From contig CAVZZO010000003.1 in NCBI GenBank assembly GCA_963779755.1, forward strand, positions 320,001-384,000: a stretch of DNA of 64,000 nucleotides, in the 5' to 3' direction. The position numbers were made by a program, and so were the translations under genes. The DNA comes from an uncultured Gemmatimonadales bacterium. GTDB lineage: Bacteria > Gemmatimonadota > Gemmatimonadetes > Gemmatimonadales > GWC2-71-9. Under the pieces are notes generated by a model. The model had not been told where the DNA came from. It searched no databases and saw only the letters and a program-made list of their open reading frames with translations. Shown piece after piece: positions 31,687 through 63,508 of the stretch (positions are counted from its first letter, which is position 1; each line of letters starts with the position of its first letter).

Positions 31687-33648
31687 ATGCACGACCTGGC
31701 CCCCCTCTGGACCGTGAGCATGCTGCTCAAGATCACCGCCGCGCTGCTGACGGCGTGGCTCGTCACTCTGGGTCTCCGGCGTTCCTCCGCCGCCCTCCGG
31801 CACCTGGTCTGGAGCGCCGCCCTGCTGGCGGTGCTCGCCCTGCCGCTTCTGTCCGCCCTGCCCTGGCGGCTGCCCGTCATCCTGCCGCAGCAGGCAGCCA
31901 TCGAGCATGCCGGCTCGGGCGCCGGCGACTCGCCGGCCGGTACCGGCATGGCAGCGCCCGAATCGGCTCCGCAGGAAAGGACGGATGGTGCAGCGCCGGC
32001 CATCTCGCAGCCGATCAGCACCACACCTGCCCGGGGTCGGCCCTCCTGGCCCGTCCTTCTGGTCGCCATCTGGGCAGCCGGCGCGCTCATTCTGCTGGGC
32101 CGTCTGGGCGTAGGCGGCTTGGTGGTGGCCCGGCTGGCGCGCCGGGCCACCCCGCTGGATGTGCCGGAATGGACTCGTCCACTGGTGGAGGGAGCCGACC
32201 GGCTGGGGCTGCCTCGGCTTCCCGCGCTCCTGATGAGCCATCGGCTCCCGATGCCGTTCGCCTGCGGGCTGTTCCGTCCCACCATCATCCTGCCTGCCGG
32301 CGCCGACGAATGGGACGACCGGCGGCGCCGCGCGGTGCTCTGTCATGAGCTGGCCCACCTCCGCCGGCTCGACCTGCCGGTGAGTCTGCTGGGCCAGATC
32401 GCCTGCGCCGTGCATTGGTTCAATCCGCTGGTGTGGATGGCCGTGCGCCGGATGCGTATCGAGAGCGAGCGGGCCTGCGACGACCTGGTGCTGGGTGCCG
32501 GCACCCGGCCCTCGGAGTATGCCGACCATCTGCTGCAGATCGTCTGCCGTTCCGCCCGTACCCGGCCCCCCGCCGTGGTTCTGCCCATGGCCCAGCGCCG
32601 GGAATTCGAGGGACGTATGCTCGCCATTCTGGAGCGCGATGCGCGCCGCGAGCCGCTCACCCGGCGGCGCGCGGCCGGTCTCGCCGCGCTGACACTGGTC
32701 CTGGTGCTGCCGCTGGCCGCGCTGGCCCCCGCGACGGGATCCTCCGCCGCGAAGCTGCCGGAGCCGGCGTCCCGGAACACTTCAGAGACGGCGGAACCCC
32801 TCCCCACGACCACCAACCGGGAGGTGCGGGTGGACTCGTCCACCTCTACCCCCAGCCATCGGGAGCAGGAGACCCGGACGGTGACCTCCAACTCAGCCGC
32901 GCCGGCACCAACGCCCGCTCCCGCGCCTCAGCCCTGGGACGGGAAGATTCGCAACCTGGCCGCCGCCGCAGCCGACACGAACGATCCACGGGTGGTAACG
33001 GGGCTGCTCCACGCGCTGGAAGATTCCGTACCCGCGGTCCGCGCCAATGCGGCCTTTGCCCTGGGGGAACTCGCGATCCGGTCCGCCGCGGGCCCCATGG
33101 CAGCCCGCCTCCAGCGGGAATCGAACAGCCAGGTCCGCGACCGGATCATCTGGGCCCTGGGCCAGTTGGAAAGCCGCGACGCCGTGCCCGCGCTGCAGCA
33201 AGTCATTCAGCGGGATTCCAGCGAAGAGCTTCGCAGCAAAGCCGTGTGGGCCCTGGGGCAGATTCAAGATCCCGCGGCCCTCCCCGCCCTGATCACCGCC
33301 CTGGGCGATCGCTCGCCGGAGGTGCGCGGGAAGGCAGCCTGGGCGCTGGGCCAGCTGGAGCCTCGAACCGCCCCGAAGGAGCTGATCGCCGCGTTGCGGG
33401 ATGGCTCCGCCGAGGTGCGGCGGCAGGCCGCGTGGGCGCTGGGCCAGATCGAGGACACCGCGGCGGTCGCCGGACTCATGACCACGCTGGGCGACAGCGT
33501 GACCAAAGTCCGGCGCACGGCGCTCTGGGCACTGGGCCAGATGGAGAGCCCAGTCACCCAGCCGGCCCTGCTCCGGGCACTCAACGATCCGGACCCTGAA
33601 ATCCGCGCGGCCGCAGCCCACGCTCTGGGTAACACCGGCGGCAACTGA
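31687..33648 (+). CDS. M56 (BlaR1-like) metallopeptidase with C-terminal HEAT repeats
   Basis: HELAH zinc motif, HWFNPLVW, ERACDD; repeated WALGQ units. Confidence 0.92.
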   Translation: MHDLAPLWTVSMLLKITAALLTAWLVTLGLRRSSAALRHLVWSAALLAVLALPLLSALPWRLPVILPQQAAIEHAGSGAGDSPAGTGMAAPESAPQERTDGAAPAISQPISTTPARGRPSWPVLLVAIWAAGALILLGRLGVGGLVVARLARRATPLDVPEWTRPLVEGADRLGLPRLPALLMSHRLPMPFACGLFRPTIILPAGADEWDDRRRRAVLCHELAHLRRLDLPVSLLGQIACAVHWFNPLVWMAVRRMRIESERACDDLVLGAGTRPSEYADHLLQIVCRSARTRPPAVVLPMAQRREFEGRMLAILERDARREPLTRRRAAGLAALTLVLVLPLAALAPATGSSAAKLPEPASRNTSETAEPLPTTTNREVRVDSSTSTPSHREQETRTVTSNSAAPAPTPAPAPQPWDGKIRNLAAAAADTNDPRVVTGLLHALEDSVPAVRANAAFALGELAIRSAAGPMAARLQRESNSQVRDRIIWALGQLESRDAVPALQQVIQRDSSEELRSKAVWALGQIQDPAALPALITALGDRSPEVRGKAAWALGQLEPRTAPKELIAALRDGSAEVRRQAAWALGQIEDTAAVAGLMTTLGDSVTKVRRTALWALGQMESPVTQPALLRALNDPDPEIRAAAAHALGNTGGN

Positions 33649-33701
33649 CGGCTGAGAAACGGGACAACCCGTTCCTCACAGAGTATTCCCGTATTCCGTG
33701 A

Positions 33702-33717
33702 TGCTGAAATTTCAGCA
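33702..33717. promoter_or_regulatory. Second copy of the palindromic operator
   Basis: TGCTGAAATTTCAGCA just upstream of the GAGGAG RBS of the HEAT gene. Confidence 0.7.
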
Positions 33718-33729
33718 CCATCAGAGGAG

Positions 33730-35298
33730 ATGCTCATAATGCTCACCGCATCCAACAACTTCTTCGCGCTCACCGCAGGGCTGGCCCTCATGTGCAGCCT
33801 GCGGTCCGGCGGCACGGCAGATCAGGCTACCGTGCGCGCTCCCCGGAGCGACGAGGCGGAGCTGGCGCGTACCGTCCTGGCCGCCTCGCGCGGAGCTCCT
33901 CCCCTGCTCTGCGCGCTGGCCACTCGTGCGGTGGAGTCCCGCTACGGCCGCTGGAGCGGGTTCCCCCCGCCCGCCGGCGGCTCCGATACCCTCCCTGCGG
34001 TACGCTGGGCGCTGAGCGACGATCCGGGCGCCGCTGCCCTACCGGTCCTGGTGGCGGCCCTGAATGACGAGGATCCCTGCGCCCGCGGCCTAGCCGCGCG
34101 GCTGATCTCCCGGTCGGAGGATCCCGCGGCCGCGGCCGGCATGCTGCGGGCGCTCTCCTCCTCCACGCCGGGAACCCGGGTCGCGGGAGCCGTGGCGCTG
34201 GGAATGGCGGAGGTCCCCGGTGCGTTGCAGCCGCTCCTCAACCGGCTGGGCGACGGCGACGCCGCCGTGCGCGCCACCGCCGCCTGGGCGTTGGGAAACT
34301 ACGATTCCCTCCGTGCCGGACCGGCGCTGCGGATGCTTCTCCGGGATCCTGTCCCGATGGTGCGAGGCGCCGGGGCTCGCGCGCTGGGACGGCTGGAGGA
34401 CACCACGGCGGTCGAGGCGCTGGCGCGGCTGCTGCGCTCGGACTCGGATGAGCGCGTGCGTATCGCCGCCGCGGAGGCTCTGGGGCAGATCGAATCGCGC
34501 GCCGCGGTGGGGGCGCTGACGGACGCCCTCGCCGACCGGAGTGCGGATGTTCGCCGCACCTCCGCCTGGGCTCTGGGGCAGATCGAATCGCCCGATGGGG
34601 TGCCGGGACTGATCCACGCCCTGGACGATGCCGATCACGAGGTGCGCGAGACGGCGATCTGGGCGCTGGGCCAGATCGAAGACAAGACGGCGGTGCCGGC
34701 CCTCTCACAGCGGCTGCAGCGCGACAATTCGCCGACGGCGCGCAAGCAGGCGGCCTGGGCCCTGGGCCAGATCGAAGATCGGTCGGCGGCCGGCGCGCTG
34801 GGCCACGCGCTGCAGACCGACACCAATGCCGAGGTTCGCAAGACCGCCGCGTGGGCTCTGGGACAGATCGAAAGCAGAGATGCCGTTCCCGCGCTCTCCG
34901 CCGCCCTGCGAGACAGTTCGGCGCAGGTGCGGGCGACCTCCGCCTGGGCCCTGGGGCAGATCGAGCCGGATCACGCCCCCGACGGGCTGGTTCCCGCCTT
35001 GAAGGATGGCTCGGCCGATGTGCGCAAGAACGTCGCGTGGGCCCTCGGCCAGATCGAGGACCGCGGCACCATCCCCGCGCTCCGGGATGCGCTGAAAGAC
35101 TCCGATGGCGAGGTTCGCCGCACCGCGCTGTGGGCGCTCTCTCAGATGGACGACGACTCCGCACGGGAGATATTCGTCGACCAGCTCAAGAGCGATGACC
35201 CGCAAATCCGCGCGGCCGCTGCCCGGGCGCTGGGCCACGGCAGCGCCGGCCCGCGTCCCCGGCCGCATCCCCGGCCCCAGCCGCGTCCCTTCCCATGA
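33730..35298 (+). CDS. HEAT/PBS-lyase repeat protein
   Basis: More than ten tandem VRxxAAWALGQIE repeats. Confidence 0.88.
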   Translation: MLIMLTASNNFFALTAGLALMCSLRSGGTADQATVRAPRSDEAELARTVLAASRGAPPLLCALATRAVESRYGRWSGFPPPAGGSDTLPAVRWALSDDPGAAALPVLVAALNDEDPCARGLAARLISRSEDPAAAAGMLRALSSSTPGTRVAGAVALGMAEVPGALQPLLNRLGDGDAAVRATAAWALGNYDSLRAGPALRMLLRDPVPMVRGAGARALGRLEDTTAVEALARLLRSDSDERVRIAAAEALGQIESRAAVGALTDALADRSADVRRTSAWALGQIESPDGVPGLIHALDDADHEVRETAIWALGQIEDKTAVPALSQRLQRDNSPTARKQAAWALGQIEDRSAAGALGHALQTDTNAEVRKTAAWALGQIESRDAVPALSAALRDSSAQVRATSAWALGQIEPDHAPDGLVPALKDGSADVRKNVAWALGQIEDRGTIPALRDALKDSDGEVRRTALWALSQMDDDSAREIFVDQLKSDDPQIRAAAARALGHGSAGPRPRPHPRPQPRPFP

Positions 35299-41996: not shown

Positions 41997-42043
41997 AGAG
42001 CCTCGGAGGTCGGGTGGTGGTGAGGGAGAGTGTATCGTCTGCC

Positions 42044-46036: not shown

Positions 46037-46170
46037 GCCTAACGAAGTGCGCGTGTGCTGCGGCGCGAACCCAACTTCCTTCACAAACTTACGGTTCCGC
46101 AGCGCGGCCGCTAGATGCCGGGGAGAGGCACTACGCGGCCGCACCGCCGGCCCTGTCAGCTCGACGCGCT
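46037..46170 (-). repeat. attC site interrupted by IS110-family element (remainder at 48787-48796)
   Basis: Ends at CGACGCGCT; missing AGTTAAGC found after the element. Confidence 0.88.
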
Positions 46171-46171
46171 C

Positions 46172-46708
46172 ATGTACGCGGATCCTTTCGGGTTGAGAGG
46201 CTGTCCAGATGTTACGGGAACTGACCCGAATAGTCTAGACGATTGTCCGGAGCGATCCCCAGGTTACTATGCTGCTCGCATTGCCAAGGGTGAAGGTAGC
46301 AGGGTGTTGAATACGGCTTTGGGAGTACTCGCCACGATGGGTCAGGTGCTGGCGGAGCATACGACGGGGAGTGTCACAGTCGGTGAAGAAAGTATCGAGA
46401 CGGATGCCTATGGACTCACGGGTGGACTGGAAAATGGCAATACCAGAGTAGTGCAACGAGTCGGACTTCCCCAGATAGGAGGAAGCCTCGGATTCACTGT
46501 TGGGAATCCGGGTACTGGCGCCGTTGATTTTGGATGGAGCAAGCATCTCGGCATCACGATTCATACCGTGCCCAGTCCTGAAGGCGGCGGAATCTCTGGA
46601 ATCACCTTCAATCTCGGAATCGGCACACCGACCCTTATCGGCATCCAGGACCGGACAGTCGTGTCGCAACCGATTCCCAAATGCCTCGTCTCATGTGCAC
46701 ATGAGTAG
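46172..46708 (+). CDS. Orphan Rhs C-terminal toxin-like tip, type A
   Basis: Starts MYADPFGL (Rhs DPxGL boundary motif), then a unique 170 aa; visibly lower GC. Confidence 0.7.
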   Translation: MYADPFGLRGCPDVTGTDPNSLDDCPERSPGYYAARIAKGEGSRVLNTALGVLATMGQVLAEHTTGSVTVGEESIETDAYGLTGGLENGNTRVVQRVGLPQIGGSLGFTVGNPGTGAVDFGWSKHLGITIHTVPSPEGGGISGITFNLGIGTPTLIGIQDRTVVSQPIPKCLVSCAHE

Positions 46709-46937
46709 TCTACTTGGGTGGTTTCTGGTTGCCGGGGGAATTTTCTACATCGGCGCTGCTGCGTTCGACTGGATTGGGCGAGCAGCAAGTGTGCCCATCG
46801 TGAAGTGGCTTATCCTGCCGCTCCGCATAGGTGAAATACGCTGGGTTGGTGGTGGCAATCGACGATTTGCCGCTACCCTCGGCATCTTTCTTCTAGTCAT
46901 CGGCTTGCTACTCGTCTTGTTCGGTCCTGAACGATAG
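46701..46937 (+). CDS. Putative immunity protein, two TM segments
   Basis: Overlaps tip stop (ATGAGTAG); 78 aa hydrophobic; function inferred from position. Confidence 0.6.
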   Translation: MSSLLGWFLVAGGIFYIGAAAFDWIGRAASVPIVKWLILPLRIGEIRWVGGGNRRFAATLGIFLLVIGLLLVLFGPER

Positions 46938-46946
46938 GCTGCCGAA

Positions 46947-47435
46947 GGAGCCGGCCTCGTCTAGCCTGGGGCGCTCGCAGTGCCTCCGGGTTGTCGGGCC
47001 TGAGCTCCGAGGGGTCGGGTCTAGTTAGGAGCCTCGCGGGCTGCCGCGCGTGGCGGACCTCGGCCGGCGGAAAAGGAAAGTGGTGGGGGCCCCACGAGTT
47101 CAGCGGAACCCATCGGCTCCAGACCTGCCGCGAGCCGGCTCCCTCGTCGGGCGTCATGCGCCCACGGGAGCAGACGGGGTCACCCCACCGGCTCCAAGGT
47201 GCTACCCGGTCCTTCGATTGTCAAAGAGCGCCGCGTTCCGCGTGCCGGCGGGATCCTGGCACCACCCTCATAGGTCGTTGAGGCTCGGGGCCTCCCACAT
47301 CTTCATGGATGCTCTCCGATCCGCGGCCGGGCGGCCAGCAACACTCTGTGCGCGGAGCTCACCGAAGACGCCGGCGGCTCAAGGCAAATAGTGGGCGGCC
47401 CGGCCGCGCACGCGCGGCTCCCCACCGATCTCCGG
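46947..47435 (-). ncRNA. Putative bridge/seek RNA region with one donor and two target loops
   Basis: Non-coding, conserved in three copies, downstream of the recombinase; guide segments match the end junction and attC. Confidence 0.8.
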
Positions 47436-48704
47436 CTATTCGCTCACCACCGGCTCTGCCCGATGCCGCTGCGCCTCCCAGCGCTCCCGCTCGAACGGCT
47501 GGCCCGAGTGGAGTACGGCCAGGAGGAGCGGCACCAGCTTGCGCGCCACCGCACAGACCGCCTTGGTCCGGAGCCCGCCATTGCGGGCCAGCAGGGCCTG
47601 ATAGTACGCGCGGTAGAGCCCCCGGGGCTGGCACCAGCGGCCGCCCAGGAGGAACAGCTGGCGGCGGAGCAGCGGCCGGCCCCGTTTGGACTGTTTGCGC
47701 CGCCCCTGCACGCTGCCGCTGGAACGCTCGACCAGATTCATGCCTGCGAGTTTCAGCACCTGGCGGGGATGAGTGAAGCGCTCCGGAGTGCCCAGCTCGG
47801 CCACAATCGTAGCCGCACAGGTGGCACTCACCTCGGGAATGGTGGTCAGCGCCTTGGCGGCGGGACACTGCTCCACCAAGGCGGCGATCTGCTGGTTCAA
47901 CACCGCGAGCTGCTCCCGCAGGAGGTCCCAGCGGGCCAGGAGCTGCTGGATCTCCAACCGCCGCTCGGGAGCGGCGTCGGCCAGGGCGACACTGGTGCGG
48001 GCGGACTCGCGCAGGACGTGGAGCCGCTCCGGGCCCACGTGGCCCCGCGAGACGGACCGCGCCAGGCGCGTCACCGCGGCCGGGGCGGCCGCCAGGAAGT
48101 CCTGCGGCAGCGGCCAACGCGCCAGCAGGGCGCGCGGGGTGGGCTTGCGCACCTGCGAGAAGTGCGTCAGGAACTCGGGCCAGGCCAGGTCGAGCAGGCT
48201 CTGGAGACGGTTCTTGAACCGGGTTTCCTCGACGGTTAACCGGTGCCGGTGGGTGGTGAGCAGCCGCAGCTCGAGATACGGGGGCTGCAGCGCCGGATAT
48301 CCCACGAAGATCCCCAGGCTCACCAGCTTGCAGATCTCGGCGGCATCCTTCGCGTCCGTCTTGTTGGGGCTGTTATCCTCCAGTTCCTTGGCCCGCTTGG
48401 TGTGGGCCGGCAGGATATTGACCAGCGCATAGCCGCGCGCCCGCAGGCACTCGGCAAACGTGAAGCCGTGATGGCCGGCGAACTCCAGCCCCACCAGCAT
48501 CTGTCCGGGCCGGATGCCGGGAAACCAGGCCGTCAACTGCGCCGCGGCGGCCTCGAAGCCCGCGCGGCTCACCGGCACCCGGACCGGCTTCGTGCGGCGC
48601 CCATCGGGGCCCTGAGCAACCAGCACGTGGACCCGCTTCGCGGTATCCACGCCTACGTGAACGGGGAACGTGCGGGTATAGGCAGACTTTTCGTCGGGGG
48701 TCAT
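47436..48704 (-). CDS. IS110 family DEDD recombinase/transposase
   Basis: VGVDTAK, GLEFAG, KTDAKDA and C-terminal RSSGS; alternative start 48731. Confidence 0.95.
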   Translation of the reverse strand: MTPDEKSAYTRTFPVHVGVDTAKRVHVLVAQGPDGRRTKPVRVPVSRAGFEAAAAQLTAWFPGIRPGQMLVGLEFAGHHGFTFAECLRARGYALVNILPAHTKRAKELEDNSPNKTDAKDAAEICKLVSLGIFVGYPALQPPYLELRLLTTHRHRLTVEETRFKNRLQSLLDLAWPEFLTHFSQVRKPTPRALLARWPLPQDFLAAAPAAVTRLARSVSRGHVGPERLHVLRESARTSVALADAAPERRLEIQQLLARWDLLREQLAVLNQQIAALVEQCPAAKALTTIPEVSATCAATIVAELGTPERFTHPRQVLKLAGMNLVERSSGSVQGRRKQSKRGRPLLRRQLFLLGGRWCQPRGLYRAYYQALLARNGGLRTKAVCAVARKLVPLLLAVLHSGQPFERERWEAQRHRAEPVVSE

Positions 48705-48796
48705 GGCGCGGCTCCGGGTGGAGGGAATCACAGGAGTCGCGGAAGGAGCTACGGGCCGCGCAGCGGCGTCAAGCGGGTATAGATGTCTAGTTAAGC

Positions 48797-54313: not shown

Positions 54314-54446
54314 GCTTAACGAAGTGCGCGTGTGCTGCGGCGCGAACCCGCGCTCCTTCACAAACCTACGTTTCCACAGCGCGACAGCTAGATCCCCGGG
54401 AGATGCGCCGCCAGCCCGCGCGACCGGCCCGTCAGAACGACGCGCT
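54314..54446 (-). repeat. attC site interrupted by IS110-family element (remainder at 57039-57048)
   Basis: Ends CAGAACGACGCGCT; AGTTAGGC resumes after the element. Confidence 0.9.
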
Positions 54447-54447
54447 C

Positions 54448-54903
54448 ATGTACGCGGATCCTTTCGGGCTGCTTGCCCAGGATTGTTGTATCGAAACGGG
54501 GGATTGGCGAAAGGATAACCTGCTTCACCCTGCTGTCTACAGCGGCAAGAGAGACAACCCGATGCTGGGAGTAGCTGTGGGTCTCCTGGCCGTTGCAGGT
54601 GGGGCCGAACTGGCTGCTCCCAGGTTATTTGCCGCGGCCACCGCTGCTCTTCCTAAGGTACCGTTTGAGAAATTCCAGGACTGGGGACGAAATGTTGTCC
54701 AATGGGGCCGTGGGGCAGCGGGGGCAATTCAGCGGGTTTCTGAAGTGACGGCCGAGCAGGCCTCTAAATTGGATCCACAGAAAGTGAAGATGGCTCGCGA
54801 CTTCTACCAGAAAGCTGTTGATGCTGGCCGAGGGGGAGCCGCCGCACCCGAACGAGTAAAGCTGATGGAACGCATTTTAGACCTGCAGCAGAGAACCCAT
54901 TAG
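54448..54903 (+). CDS. Orphan Rhs C-terminal toxin-like tip, type B
   Basis: MYADPFGL start, hydrophobic linker, C-domain WGRGAAGAIQR..FYQ..RVKLMERI reminiscent of DUF4951 (from memory, unverified). Confidence 0.72.
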   Translation: MYADPFGLLAQDCCIETGDWRKDNLLHPAVYSGKRDNPMLGVAVGLLAVAGGAELAAPRLFAAATAALPKVPFEKFQDWGRNVVQWGRGAAGAIQRVSEVTAEQASKLDPQKVKMARDFYQKAVDAGRGGAAAPERVKLMERILDLQQRTH

Positions 54904-54949
54904 TGGCTCGGTCCGGTCTATTCGAGCATTGCAACACGGAGGAAGAGCC

Positions 54950-55198
54950 ATGCTGGAAGCAGCGGTCACACTTCGGCTTACGAATAGATGCGAAACTGCG
55001 CGGAAGCTCGTGATTGAGCCATGGACCACCGAGTTTCGACTGCAACCTGGGCACACTTACGACTTGGTGATATCAGGGGACCTTGGCCTCCCCTTAGAGG
55101 TTGAGTTCGAGGACGACGAACTAACCGTATACACTTTCGATTCCGCCAATGCCTCCTTCAAGATTTCCGAAGGCGGGGCTGAACTTAAACCACTGTAG
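54950..55198 (+). CDS. Putative immunity protein
   Basis: GGAGG RBS, 82 aa acidic protein with IEPW motif, directly after the tip. Confidence 0.65.
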   Translation: MLEAAVTLRLTNRCETARKLVIEPWTTEFRLQPGHTYDLVISGDLGLPLEVEFEDDELTVYTFDSANASFKISEGGAELKPL

Positions 55199-55687
55199 GA
55201 GCCCGGCCCTGTCTAGCCTGGGGCGCTCGGGGCGCCTCCGGGTTGTCGGGCCTGAACTCCGAGGGGTCGGGTCTAGTTAGGAGCCTCGCGGGCTGCCGCG
55301 CGTGGCGGACCTCGGCCGGCGGAAAAGGAAAGTGGTGGGGGCCCCACGAGTTCAGCGGAACCCATCGGCTCCAGACCTGCCGCGAGCCGGCTCCCTCGTC
55401 GGGCGTCATGCGCCCACGGGAGCAGACGGGGTCACCCCACCGGCTCCAAGGTGCTACCCGGTCCTTCGATTGTCAAAGAGCGCCGCGTTCCGCGTGCCGG
55501 CGGGATCCTGGCACCACCCTCATAGGTCGTTGAGGCTCGGGGCCTCCCACATCTTCATGGATGCTCTCCGATCCGCGGCCGGGCGGCCAGCCATACTCTG
55601 TGCGCGGAACTCACCGAAGACGCCGGCGGCTCAAGGCAAATAGAGGGCGGCCCGGCCGCGCACGCGCGGCTCCCCCCCGGTCTCCGA
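55198..55687 (-). ncRNA. Putative bridge/seek RNA region, copy 2
   Basis: Near-identical to 46947-47435; guide segments unchanged. Confidence 0.8.
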
Positions 55688-56956
55688 CTATTCGATCACC
55701 ACCGGCTCTGCGTGATGCCGCTGGGTCTCCCAGCGCTCCCGGTCGAACGGCTGGCCCGACTGGAGCACGGCCAGGAGGAGCGGCACCAGCTTGCGGGCCA
55801 CCGCGCAGACCGCCTTGGTCCGGAGCCCCCCGTTACGGGCGAGCAGGGCCTGATAGTACGCGCGGTAGAGCCCCCGGGGCTGGCACCAGCGGCCGCCCAG
55901 GAGGAACAGCTGGCGGCGGAGCAGCGGCCGGCCCCGTTTGGACTGTTTGCGCCGCCCCTGCACGCTGCCGCTGGAACGCTCGACCAGATTCATGCCTGCG
56001 AGTTTCAGCACCTGGCGGGGATGAGTGAAGCGCTCCGGAGTGCCCAGCTCGGCCACAATCGTAGCCGCACAGGTGGCACTCACCTCGGGAATGGTGGTCA
56101 GCGCCTTGGCGGCGGGACACTGCTCCACCAAGGCGGCGATCTGCTGGTTCAACACCGCGAGCTGCTCCCGCAGGAGGTCCCAGCGGGCCAGGAGCTGCTG
56201 GATCTCCAACCGCCGCTCGGGAGCGGCGTCGGCCAGGGCGACACTGGTGCGGGCGGACTCGCGCAGGACGTGGAGCCGCTCCGGGCCCACGTGGCCCCGC
56301 GAGACGGACCGCGCCAGGCGCGTCACCGCGGCCGGGGCGGCCGCCAGGAAGTCCTGCGGCAGCGGCCAACGCGCCAGCAGGGCGCGCGGGGTGGGCTTGC
56401 GCACCTGCGAGAAGTGCGTCAGGAACTCGGGCCAGGCCAGGTCGAGCAGGCTCTGGAGACGGTTCTTGAACCGGGTTTCCTCGACGGTTAACCGGTGCCG
56501 GTGGGTGGTGAGCAGCCGCAGCTCGAGATACGGGGGCTGCAGCGCCGGATACCCCACGAAGATCCCCAGGCTCACCAGCTTGCAGATCTCGGCGGCATCC
56601 TTCGCGTCCGTCTTGTTGGGGCTGTTATCCTCCAGTTCCTTGGCCCGCTTGGTGTGGGCCGGCAGGATATTGACCAGCGCATAGCCGCGCGCCCGCAGGC
56701 ACTCGGCAAACGTGAAGCCGTGATGGCCGGCGAACTCCAGCCCCACCAGCATCTGTCCGGGCCGGACGCCGGGAAACCAGGCCGTCAACTGCGCCGCGGC
56801 GGCCTCGAAGCCTGCGCGGCTCACCGGCACTCGGACCGGCTTCGTCCGCCGGCCATCGGGGCCCTGGGCGACCAGGACGTGAACGCGCTTGGCGGTGTCC
56901 ACACCCACGTGGACGGGAAACCAGCGGGCGTAGGCGGACTTCTCATCGGGGGTCAT
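55688..56956 (-). CDS. IS110 family DEDD recombinase/transposase
   Basis: Near-identical to copy 1; intact; alternative start 56983. Confidence 0.95.
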   Translation of the reverse strand: MTPDEKSAYARWFPVHVGVDTAKRVHVLVAQGPDGRRTKPVRVPVSRAGFEAAAAQLTAWFPGVRPGQMLVGLEFAGHHGFTFAECLRARGYALVNILPAHTKRAKELEDNSPNKTDAKDAAEICKLVSLGIFVGYPALQPPYLELRLLTTHRHRLTVEETRFKNRLQSLLDLAWPEFLTHFSQVRKPTPRALLARWPLPQDFLAAAPAAVTRLARSVSRGHVGPERLHVLRESARTSVALADAAPERRLEIQQLLARWDLLREQLAVLNQQIAALVEQCPAAKALTTIPEVSATCAATIVAELGTPERFTHPRQVLKLAGMNLVERSSGSVQGRRKQSKRGRPLLRRQLFLLGGRWCQPRGLYRAYYQALLARNGGLRTKAVCAVARKLVPLLLAVLQSGQPFDRERWETQRHHAEPVVIE

Positions 56957-57065
56957 AGCGCGGCTCCGGGTGGAAGGAATCACAGGAGTCGCGGAAGGAG
57001 CTACGGGCCGCGCCGCGGCGTCAAGCGGGTATAGATGTCTAGTTAGGCTTCACTGCGCATTCAAC

Positions 57066-60790: not shown

Positions 60791-60921
60791 TGCTAACGAA
60801 GTGCGCGTGTGCTGCAGCGCGATCCCTCAGGATTTCACAAACTTACGCTTCCACAGCCGCGCCGCCAGGAGGCCGGAGCATGGGCCCGCGGCCCGCGCGA
60901 CGGCCTGCAGAACGACGCGCT
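60791..60921 (-). repeat. attC site interrupted by IS110-family element (remainder at 63505-63514)
   Basis: Ends CAGAACGACGCGCT; TGTTAGAC resumes after the element. Confidence 0.9.
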
Positions 60922-60922
60922 C

Positions 60923-61377
60923 ATGTACGCGGATCCTTTCGGGCTGCCTGCCCAGGATTGTTGTATCGAAACGGGGGATTGGCGAAAGGATAACCTGCTT
61001 CACCCTGCTGTCTACAGCGGCAAGAGAGACAACCCGATGCTGGGAGTAGCTGTGGGTCTCCTGGCCGTTGCAGGTGGGGCCGAACTGGCTGCTCCCAGGT
61101 TATTTGCCGCGGCCACCGCTGCTCTTCCTAAGGTACCGTTTGAGAAATTCCAGGACTGGGGACGAAATGTTGTCCAATGGGGCCGTGGGGCAGCGGGGGC
61201 AATTCAGCGGGTTTCTGAAGTGACGGCGAGCAGGCCTCTAAATTGGATCCACAGAAAGTGAAGATGGCTCGCGACTTCTACCAGAAAGCTGTTGATGCTG
61301 GCCGAGGGGGAGCCGCCGCACCCGAACGAGTAAAGCTGATGGAACGCATTTTAGACCTGCAGCAGAGAACCCATTAG
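60923..61377 (+). pseudogene. Rhs tip type B with 1-bp deletion near 61227 (possible sequencing error)
   Basis: GTGACGGCGAGC versus GTGACGGCCGAGC in copy 2. Confidence 0.65.
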
Positions 61378-61423
61378 TGGCTCGGTCCGGTCTATTCGAG
61401 CATTGCAACACGGAGGAAGAGCC

Positions 61424-61672
61424 ATGCTGGAAGCAGCGGTCACACTTCGGCTTACGAATAGATGCGAAACTGCGCGGAAGCTCGTGATTGAGCCATGGAC
61501 CACCGAGTTTCGACTGCAACCTGGGCACACTTACGACTTGGTGATATCAGGGGACCTTGGCCTCCCCTTAGAGGTTGAGTTCGAGGACGACGAACTAACC
61601 GTATACACTTTCGATTCCGCCAATGCCTCCTTCAAGATTTCCGAAGGCGGGGCTGAACTTAAACCACTGTAG
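61424..61672 (+). CDS. Putative immunity protein, identical to copy 2
   Basis: Same translation as 54950-55198. Confidence 0.65.
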   Translation: MLEAAVTLRLTNRCETARKLVIEPWTTEFRLQPGHTYDLVISGDLGLPLEVEFEDDELTVYTFDSANASFKISEGGAELKPL

Positions 61673-62156
61673 GAGCCCGGCCCTGTCTAGCCGGGGCGCT
61701 CGGGGCGCCTCCGGGTTGTCGGGCCTGAACTCCGAGGGGTTGGGTCTAGTTAGGAGCCTCGCGGGCTGCCGCGCGTGGCGGACCTCGGCCGGCGGAAAAG
61801 GAAAGTGGTGGGGGCCCCACGAGTTCAGCGGAACCCATCGGCTCCAGACCTGCCGCGAGCCGGCTCCCTCGTCGGGCGTATGCGCCCACGGGAGCAGACG
61901 GGGTCACCCCACCGGCTCCAAGGTGCTACCGGTCCTTCGATTGTCAAAGAGCGCCGCGTTCCGCGTGCCGGCGGGATCCTGGCACCACCCTCATAGGTCG
62001 TTGAGGCTCGGGGCCTCCCACATCTTCATGGATGCTCTCCGATCGCGGCCGGGCGGCCAGCAACACTCTGTGCGCGGAGCTCACCGAAGACGCCGGCGGC
62101 TCAAGGCAAATAGAGGGCGGCCTGGCCGCGCACGCGCGGCTCCCACCGATCTCCGG
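61672..62156 (-). ncRNA. Putative bridge/seek RNA region, copy 3
   Basis: Near-identical to the other copies with a few single-base deletions. Confidence 0.75.
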
Positions 62157-63422
62157 CTATTCGCTCACCACCGGCTCTGCGTGATGCCGCTGCGCCTCCC
62201 AGCGCTCCCGCTCGAACGGCTGGCCCGAGTGGAGTACGGCCAGGAGGAGCGGCACCAGCTTGCGCGCCACCGCACAGACCGCCTTGGTCCGGAGCCCGCC
62301 ATTGCGGGCCAGCAGGGCCTGATAGTACGCGCGGTAGAGCCCCCGGGGCTGGCACCAGCGGCCGCCCAGGAGGAACAGCTGGCGGCGGAGCAGCGGCAGG
62401 CCCCGTTTGGACTGTTTGCGCCGCCCCTGCACGCTGCCGCTGGAACGCTCGACCAGATTCATGCCTGCGAGTTTCAGCACCTGGCGGGGATGAGTGAAGC
62501 GCTCCGGAGTGCCCAGCTCGGCCACAATCGTAGCCGCACAGGTGGCACTCACCTCGGGAATGGTGGTCAGCGCCTTGGCGGCGGGACACTGCTCCACCAA
62601 GGCGGCGATCTGCTGGTTCAACACCGCGAGCTGCTCCCGCAGGAGGTCCCAGCGGGCCAGGAGCTGCTGGATCTCCAACCGCCGCTCGGGAGCGGCGTCG
62701 GCCAGGGCGACACTGGTGCGGGCGGACTCGCGCAGGACGTGGAGCCGCTCCGGGCCCACGTGGCCCCGCGAGACGGACCGCGCCAGGCGCGTCACCGCGG
62801 CCGGGGCGGCTGCCAGGAAGTCCTGCGGCAGCGGCCAACGCGCCAGCAGGGCGCGCGGGGTGGGCTTGCGCACCTGCGAGAAGTGCGTCAGGAACTCGGG
62901 CCAGGCCAGGTCGAGCAGGCTCTGGAGACGGTTCTTGAACCGGGTTTCCTCGACGGTTAACCGGTGCGGTGGGTGGTGAGCAGCCGCAGCTCGAGATACG
63001 GGGGCTGCAGCGCCGGATATCCCACGAAGATCCCCAGGCTCACCAGCTTGCAGATCTCGGCGGCATCCTTCGCGTTCGTCTTGTTGGGGCTGTTATCCTC
63101 CAGTTCCTTGGCCCGCTTGGTGTGGGCCGGCAGGATATTGACCAGCGCATAGCCGCGCGCCGCAGGCACTCGGCAAACGTGAAGCCGTGATGGCCGGCGA
63201 ACTCCAGCCCCACCAGCATCTGTCCGGGCCGGACGCCGGGAAACCAGGCCGTCAACTGCGCCGCGGCGGCCTCGAAGCCTGCGCGGCTCACCGGCACTCG
63301 GACCGGCTTCGTCGCCGGCCATCGGGGCCCTGGGCGACCAGGACGTGAACGCGCTTGGCGGTGTCCACACCCACGTGGACGGGAAACCAGCGGGCGTAGG
63401 CGGACTTCTCATCGGGGGTCAT
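62157..63422 (-). pseudogene. IS110 recombinase with several 1-bp deletions (possible sequencing errors)
   Basis: Single C missing near 62967, 63160 and 63313 relative to copy 2. Confidence 0.8.
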
Positions 63423-63508
63423 AGCGCGGCTCCGGGTGGAAGGAATCACAGGAGTCGCGGAAGGAGCTACGGGCCGCGCCGCGGCGTCAAGCGGGTATAG
63501 ATGTCTTG

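Follow-up and report, generated by a model that had tools for sequence, protein, structure and literature searches.

Why does a mobile element that sits in an integron cassette array carry the C-terminal tip of an Rhs toxin, and does its guide RNA address Rhs genes as well as attC sites? This question is raised by a 64-kb stretch of DNA (hereafter the window; G000:C3:320001–384000, where coordinates prefixed C1 or C3 refer to contigs of the same genome), which has a G+C content of 68% and has its named protein relatives in Gemmatimonadales. We subjected the element, its RNA, and its relatives to a comparative sequence analysis, which makes it very probable that this IS110-family bridge recombinase element is an RNA-guided delivery vehicle for Rhs toxin tips.

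The element, its cargo, and its recombinase

An attC cassette array (42046–64000, with 20 attC copies in repeat family D6) is host to three copies of the element, and integron integrases above cut-off are found at C3:405150, 21 kb past the end of the window, and at C1:690828, beside both arrays. Several cassette ORFs in window positions 42000–64000 and the integrase at C3:405150 all lie on the minus strand, a co-oriented integron layout. Rfam gives 0 matches within the 64-kb window, and tandem 93- to 96-nt repeats (≈31 codons) at 33228–35150 probably belong to a gene for a helical-repeat protein.

The element spans 46171–48786 (2,616 bp) and is bounded by two CT cores inside one attC: the left half of the site (...ACGCG) is followed by CT at the cargo-side junction (46169–46170, plus strand), and the transposase-side end TATAGATGT with its CT core precedes the remainder of the attC (AGTTAAG) at 48778–48788 (plus strand). 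CT flanks both ends in four copies, representing a 2-nt core insertion with no further target duplication. Copy 2 (54445–57040), in another attC, is 97% identical outside the cargo and harbors a DUF4951 tip with a different partner ORF; copy 3 (60920–63506), again in another attC, has the cargo of copy 2 and shows frameshifts in the recombinase and tip that reflect either decay or sequencing error. The genome contains four full copies in total (three in the window and one on C1) and one solo end, every one of them in an attC, and none of the four copies lies inside an Rhs gene. The solo end is a transposase-side end of 155 nt at G000:C1:673507–673661. The copies are 96 to 97% identical yet carry two different tips, and the two cargoes share nothing beyond their first 22 to 23 nt, after which they diverge. 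The element end at 46171–46192 (plus strand), common to all four full copies, doubles as the Rhs core codons M-Y-A-D-P-F-G, and its in-frame reading as M-Y-A-D-P-F-G-L is real. At the other end, the transposase-side sequence (48766–48786, plus strand) is kept as TCAAGCGGG-ATAGA in many relatives. We speculate that this end could be an outward promoter that keeps the immunity gene of a displaced tip on.

Cargo 1 is an Rhs C-terminal tip of 179 codons counted from the core (46169–46708, plus strand), starting L-M-Y-A-D-P-F-G-L and matching no Pfam or NCBIfam entry. As a tip module should, it opens with D-P-x-G, the motif that closes the core, and is found after Rhs cores, relatives P0123 and P0128 having the same tip directly behind an Rhs core motif; by homology, tip 1 is assigned to the Rhs tips. 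Rhs tips act as toxins and have an immunity gene next to them; here, a hydrophobic ORF of 78 aa that overlaps the tip stop codon (46701–46937, plus strand; only DUF4395, below cut-off) is by position a putative immunity gene. Tips in this family range from 113 to 187 aa, and 54 of them fall into 39 clusters of mostly unannotated tip and partner pairs; matches above cut-off to toxin- or cell-wall-lysis-linked families (lysozyme, M23, and PT-TG) were obtained for 3 of 53 relatives' tips. For tip 1, the ESM Atlas returned unnamed clusters only (scores ≤0.90, low recognition), and the AlphaFold model (pLDDT 53) is too poor for a fold search; longer proteins containing either tip 1 or tip 2 were searched for without a match, a result of little evidential weight. 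Since few tips match a family and neither of two T6SS markers, VipB and a VgrG-type domain, was detected in this genome (97% complete), delivery and toxicity of the tip remain putative.

The recombinase (47436–48701, minus strand; 421 aa from ATG) matches PF01548 and PF02371, as well as the NF033542 profile at 195 bits (cut-off 140), and residues D19, E73, D116, D119, and S328 are invariant in 59 relatives. A DEDD RuvC-like domain and a C-terminal Tnp domain with a predicted catalytic serine place the protein in the IS110 family, and the element has the broad traits of the RNA-guided transposases of that family, i.e., the domains, a 2-nt core, and a co-varying guide RNA. An alignment search of viral contigs and a single-protein locus search of genome contigs gave no matches, and plasmid relatives of the recombinase reach at best 33% identity among the 15 matches listed.

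The guide RNA region

Downstream of the recombinase gene lies a non-coding region of ≈490 nt (46947–47435) with one donor and two target loops, and the three guide–stem–guide units described in the first-pass annotation are present on the minus strand where it had placed them. The donor loop (47267–47302, minus strand) consists of a left guide AGATGT (47302–47297), a stem GAGGC/CCCGA/GCCTC, and a right guide with core, ATGAG (47271–47267). It matches the element junction at 11 of 11 positions, a score that 0 of 300 dinucleotide shuffles of the 496-nt RNA, our chance test for loop matches, reach. Target loop 1 (attC; 47005–47068, minus strand), with ACGCGC at 47051–47046, a right guide with core CCTAACTAG at 47029–47021, and a handshake AC at 47020–47019, matches the site of copy 1 at 14 of 16 positions (reached by 1 of 500 shuffles) and that of copy 2 at 15 of 16 positions (reached by 0 of 500). 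Target loop 2, the third loop of the region (Rhs; 46945–47008, minus strand), has a left guide GACAACCCG (46995–46987), a right guide with core CCAGGCTAG (46969–46961), and a handshake AC (46960–46959). As had been claimed, it is laid out like the attC loop, with a left-to-right guide distance of 17 nt in both, and the AC that follows each right guide complements the donor GT as handshake guides do. The inner stem of this third loop is a perfect GGCGC/GCGCC in copies 2 and 3 and has one mismatch in copy 1.

The 496-nt RNA as a whole folds no better than shuffles (z = −1.42), so folding stability provides no evidence. Target-loop helices are paired in 83% of cells, versus 27 to 41% when slid, with 33 double changes in a 32-row alignment whose rows were picked by a pattern requiring the inner hairpin, a selection that favors pairing. 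Between the donor and target loops runs an invariant CGGCGCT(C/G)TTTGACAA motif (47218–47233, minus strand; 59 relatives), in which TTTGACAA was the search anchor, TTGACA is found in 59 of 59, and the preceding CGGCGCT in 58 to 59 of 59. This motif is possibly a −35 box or a structural element, and the invariant TTGACA may mark a separate transcript for the target loops. A variant of the main reading, compatible with it and in our estimate tenable though somewhat short of probable, would have donor and target loops as separate RNAs, made from an internal promoter or by processing, with each target loop loading its own recombinase dimer. It would accommodate the ≈200 nt that separate donor and target loops, the CAGCTT-like hexamer found 17 nt after TTGACA in most relatives, and the form of the target loops as self-contained hairpin units repeated one to three times; moreover, the main species of CazIS110-1 is a target-loop-only RNA in the covered part of that account (10.1101/2025.10.25.684509), and long and short RNAs are reported for IS1111 elements in that of another (PMC11187229). 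On the other hand, no promoter is called at the motif in this copy, and TTGACA could be part of a structural RNA.

Insertion sites and guides across relatives

The relatives comprise 16 genome loci, 78 loci from metagenomes (of 147 confirmed stretches, the best 80 were taken), and further loci that two genome searches yielded in 4 of 301 and in 11 of 401 genomes; counts of ends use loci L001–L117 after duplicate removal, with cargo-side ends being those at which a tip start was found, and loci that lack a tip or stop short of one do not enter that count. The 58 distinct cargo-side ends comprise 27 in Rhs genes, 14 nested behind another element's end, 12 in attC or attC-like sites, and 5 others. 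All 27 Rhs cases are in-frame fusions at [N/D]-P, with at least 1,000 open codons upstream in seven and 300 to 999 in six, and the rest are short at a contig edge (seven) or short orphans (seven). The 12 attC or attC-like ends resolve into six attC, five AAACGCC-CT-AAC sites, and one that is unclear. Among the 68 distinct transposase-side ends, 47 are followed by displaced tips in register (pattern x-x-x-x-D-P/A-F/Y/W; motif background 1.1e-4 per base), eight by attC, five by the AAC-type site, and eight by other DNA. All four long fused ORFs tested (1,507–1,750 aa) pass TIGR03696 and TIGR01643 across the junction, and the same Rhs junction recurs in 4 of 10 further loci, one being a repeat of L024. 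The first-pass annotation had inferred that a single recombinase is programmed for two targets, attC and the Rhs core, and replaces the toxin tip in frame, and had called for a search for fused Rhs genes with a displaced old tip; relatives bear out the inference and supply such genes (27 of 58 and 47 of 68 ends). In genome G286, one copy lies in an attC and a 90%-identical copy in an Rhs motif with a displaced tip, each matching its own loop, and the left flank of the Rhs copy matches the Rhs left guide over 8 nt. Likewise, L066 and L074 are 95% identical and share the same tip, the former at an AAC-type site and the latter in an Rhs gene.

The recurrent non-Rhs target AAACGCC-CT-AAC (L041, L050, L057, L066, and L072) is found after a ≈24-nt direct repeat and has matching loops in 11 loop sets; candidates for it are an attC, an attI, or a transposon end. 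Inspection failed to establish these sites as attC, so they were counted apart. Ends followed by CACGTT (L037 and L061) were considered as circle junctions and rejected, since the downstream tips differ from the element's own cargo and are thus stacked tips; a circle joint was not found in three soil DNA contig sets of low depth. One clade has a tRNA-like gene directly after the target loops, in the place of the tip (L102:2165–2249, L103:1879–1964, and L106:1920–2005), which ARAGORN calls in three of five loci with differing anticodons; similar stretches occur in L104 and L107.

The guides vary with the sequences that flank them. In 32 of 33 elements, the left guide of the donor loop is identical to the element end (AGATGT in 18, AGAGGT in 13, and AGGTGT in 1), and the element ends CAT/CAC track the donor right guides ATG/GTG. 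For the target loops, 35 elements with both ends were available, of which 26 were retained after nested elements, those followed by their own end, and three same-genome copies were dropped. An element's own target loop scores 12.27 of 15 against its own flanks and 11.11 when permuted (reached in 0 of 20,000 permutations; n = 26), and Rhs insertions alone give 12.69 versus 11.40 (p = 0.0001; n = 13), p-values that are overstated because the relatives are kin. Shuffled RNA scores 9.8 in the same test, and for some Rhs insertions the scan turned up no good own loop (L024 ranks 21, L026 15, and L081 9 of 26). Resolved by position in the 13 Rhs insertions, the match is 77 to 92% at +1, +2, +3, and +5, 69% at +4, and 8% at +6 and +7, and falls at third codon positions (54% and 62% at −4 and −1). 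The W in the N-P-L-A-W decoded from the third loop by the first-pass annotation is not sustained: the right guide extends over ≈5 nt, and W corresponds to scaffold because +6 and +7 so rarely match the flank. Nor is the CT core assumed for the Rhs target seen among 24 Rhs junctions, which have GT (18), GC (3), AT (2), or AC (1) and in no case CT; because Rhs targets keep their own core, mostly GT, the product reads N-P-V-M-Y, not N-P-L-M-Y. The donor side keeps CT in 18 of 19 Rhs insertions with both ends, and the Rhs side keeps the target core.

A covariance model found 145 target-loop units. Of the loop sets, 65 are distinct; two or three target loops occur in 46 of them and an Rhs-type loop in 57, where it is paired with an attC loop in 7 and with an AAC-type-site loop in 11. 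The model was seeded with Rhs-type loops and leans toward them, and the loop numbers are lower bounds because in copies 1 and 2 it failed to pick up the attC loop of the window itself. The coding pattern proposed for the third loop is thus kept in homologs in its N/D-P part and lost in its W part. Extra right-guide halves without a left guide of their own are found before or after a full loop in L024, L029, L083, L084, L087, and L091, and could represent permuted loops or else alternative right guides that use a common left guide. Finally, ≥12 of 14 positions are matched at 91 genome sites, and a guide of 11 nt that tolerates wobble cannot alone explain specificity.

The same genome encodes a sister recombinase (40% identical) at C3:1486105, as part of an element (G000:C3:1486035–1488857) with a GT core that lies in an orphan Rhs motif and has its own tip, a partner ORF, and an N-N-P target loop; its site is at one edge of an Rhs region of 60 kb in which 13 core matches occur. 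The sister family forms a separate clade (SH-aLRT 100) in a quick tree that took in the first family and its sister only, with no IS1111 reference sequences. Tips displaced by the sister family begin CAC, CAT, or CGC in 11 of 11 cases, which is how the ends of the first family begin, and among 36 tips displaced by the first family and by its relatives with a GT core, only 4 do so; four of seven sister-family cargo ends begin AGCC, which is what the third loop reads. Alternating element stacks are seen in L042 and G286. These patterns indicate that the sister family lands in front of the first family's tips, so that elements stack alternately.

Whether the third loop still serves the element in the window bears on an alternative that we regard as unlikely, namely that this loop is a relic here, in a lineage that moves only between attC sites and carries its tip passively. 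This genome has 11 [N/D]-P-x5-DP[F/Y]G sites, and a perfect target is not among them: the third loop matches them at 3 to 10 of 11 positions and the four long Rhs frames at 8, 3, 5, and 8 of 11. This fits a relic, as do the attC location of four of four full copies and the solo end and the mismatched inner stem of copy 1. However, the guides are intact in copies 1 and 2 and in the C1 copy, two sites match at 10 of 11 positions (both orphan fragments, one of them created by the sister element), and two different tips have been acquired by copies that are nearly identical.

Far less probable is that tips reach Rhs genes by host homologous recombination via short D-P-F-G homology, as in the circle model of Jackson et al. 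2009, with the insertion sequence hitch-hiking. Circles and homologous recombination are invoked by that published model, as given in the covered part of PMC2935791, and the exchange of cargo inside the element (54 tips, 39 clusters) is unexplained; yet every junction falls at a single base position, 47 of 68 ends have the displaced tip starting immediately behind the donor core, only ≈22 nt of core-like sequence are carried, and the guides co-vary with the flanks.

The caution in the first-pass annotation that the third loop also folds on the plus strand was justified (−42.7 versus −29.2 kcal/mol on the minus strand), and a strand test of G-U asymmetry gives 27 versus 23 cells; the minus-strand reading, which we favor, draws on co-orientation with the recombinase and on the guide geometry of IS621. 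The least credible explanation, that this loop is a plus-strand hairpin ending the cargo transcript with an N-P reading by chance, is very improbable: the plus fold is 13.5 kcal/mol more stable and comes right after the partner ORF stop, but it has no T tract and no terminator-like site is called there, the 57 of 65 loop sets that hold such a loop have it at varied array positions, the Rhs left guides differ from one another in ways that stay synonymous for D/N-P, and the right guides follow their flanks.

Mechanism, known systems, and implications

What can be read from the sequences themselves is where the element begins and ends, which cargo it has, that it has a single donor loop and more than one target loop, and that in relatives Rhs genes are fused in frame to the tip, with the old tip behind the transposase. 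In the RNA-guided delivery that we propose by analogy with IS621 and CazIS110-1, the element would be copied out as a circle joining AGATGT-CT-CATGT; the donor loop would grip this junction, and a target loop would grip either attC or the [N/D]-P codons of Rhs. Top strands would then be cut 3′ of the 2-nt core and exchanged, with the AC handshake pairing with the donor GT helping, and by analogy with the same two systems the top strand would be the one that is kept. IS621 cleavage occurs 3′ of the core (PMC11208158) and top-strand-only insertion has been described (10.1101/2025.10.25.684509), in the parts of these sources covered; that the Rhs side retains the target core and the donor side CT is as expected from such cleavage with top-strand retention. 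Because the element end spells x-(Y/F)-x-D-P-F-G-L, an Rhs insertion would rebuild the motif and give a new tip and its partner gene in one step, and an attC insertion would park a silent tip in the cassette array. Tips would stack because insertion rewrites the bases to the right of the core, so that the same family seldom targets them and the sister family does. Analogous systems are the ground on which we predict the circle, RNA binding, and catalysis.

The element resembles IS621, as described in parts of two reports (PMC11208160 and PMC11208158; PDB 8WT6), in its DEDD plus serine recombinase and CT donor core, in a left guide identical and a right guide complementary to the top strand, and in target-loop handshake pairing to donor positions 6–7; the two recombinases are distant, however (E = 1.4e-20; 328 aa in IS621 versus 421 aa here). 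IS621, in these parts, has one target and one donor loop, RNA upstream of the gene, and no cargo, whereas the present element has its RNA downstream, two to three target loops with different addresses across the family (46 of 65 loop sets), tolerance of non-CT target cores, and an element end that is coding sequence. With RNA downstream and two target loops, it is not of the IS621 type (IS110 group). A downstream non-coding region and a fixed insertion position near one attC end are shared with the IS1111-attC group, i.e., ISKpn4 and ISPst6 with seekRNA, as covered in part of PMC11187229. The long non-coding region downstream of tnp that marks the IS1111 group is present (≈490 nt), 11- to 13-bp sub-terminal inverted repeats were not found (best 7 of 12 identities, longest run 3), and a second programmed target and the tip and partner cargo distinguish the element from the IS1111-attC group. 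Earlier work on that group is said to include Tetu and Holmes 2008 and Post and Hall 2009.

In Rhs C-terminal displacement as portrayed in the covered part of Jackson et al. 2009 (PMC2935791), a new tip likewise appears at the core end, the old tip is shunted downstream, and a circle is proposed. Their model rests on homologous recombination between long, near-identical core fragments, and the word "transposase" is absent from the text; the present element, in contrast, has a dedicated RNA-guided recombinase, a core-coding end of ≈22 nt, and a single-base junction. Cargo-expanded IS110 elements (10.64898/2026.08.14.744561) also have passenger genes and tolerant guide matching, but the portion covered describes mostly plasmid DNA and resistance genes gained by progressive addition, whereas the cargo here has a set type and size and continues the reading frame of the target gene. 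The terms Rhs, toxin, attC, and integron occur 0 times in that preprint's main text, as covered, and Rhs 0 times in the covered text of PMC13604230 and of three 2026 preprints on IS110 or non-coding mining. The literature covered, which includes PMC11208160, PMC11208158, PMC11187229, PMC13604230, PMC13183296, PMC2935791, 10.64898/2026.10.21.760802, 10.64898/2026.07.13.738213, 10.64898/2026.09.15.751765, and 10.64898/2026.08.14.744561, in part and with supplements and subscription journals outside its scope, holds no account of IS110 targeting of Rhs genes or of natural multi-target bridge RNAs. Bridge-RNA cluster tables of 2026 preprints could hold the present family unremarked. On strong genomic evidence, then, the element is a real member of the IS110 family, and its several target loops, its coding end, and the precise Rhs tip replacement read from its relatives are new relative to this literature.

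Taken more broadly, we consider it likely that an IS110 family widespread in Gemmatimonadota acts as a programmable protein-domain exchanger, in which target-loop arrays with Rhs codon variants and storage sites, a coding end, and two alternating sister families with complementary guides amount to RNA-guided Rhs displacement by a natural multiplexed bridge RNA. Displacement of Rhs tips has been attributed since 2009 to a homologous-recombination circle, a proposal that left the origin of the circle open (PMC2935791, in the part covered); with an enzyme that can be named, a guide that can be read, and a junction that is exact, this family makes the question testable with plasmids. Its cargoes, most of them without annotation, make up a catalogue of tip–partner pairs (54 tips in 39 clusters). 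Furthermore, the family shows that bridge RNAs in nature are able to carry several addresses and to produce in-frame protein fusions where the codon motif is degenerate and the core mismatched, which bears on multiplexing and core tolerance in bridge recombinase tools.
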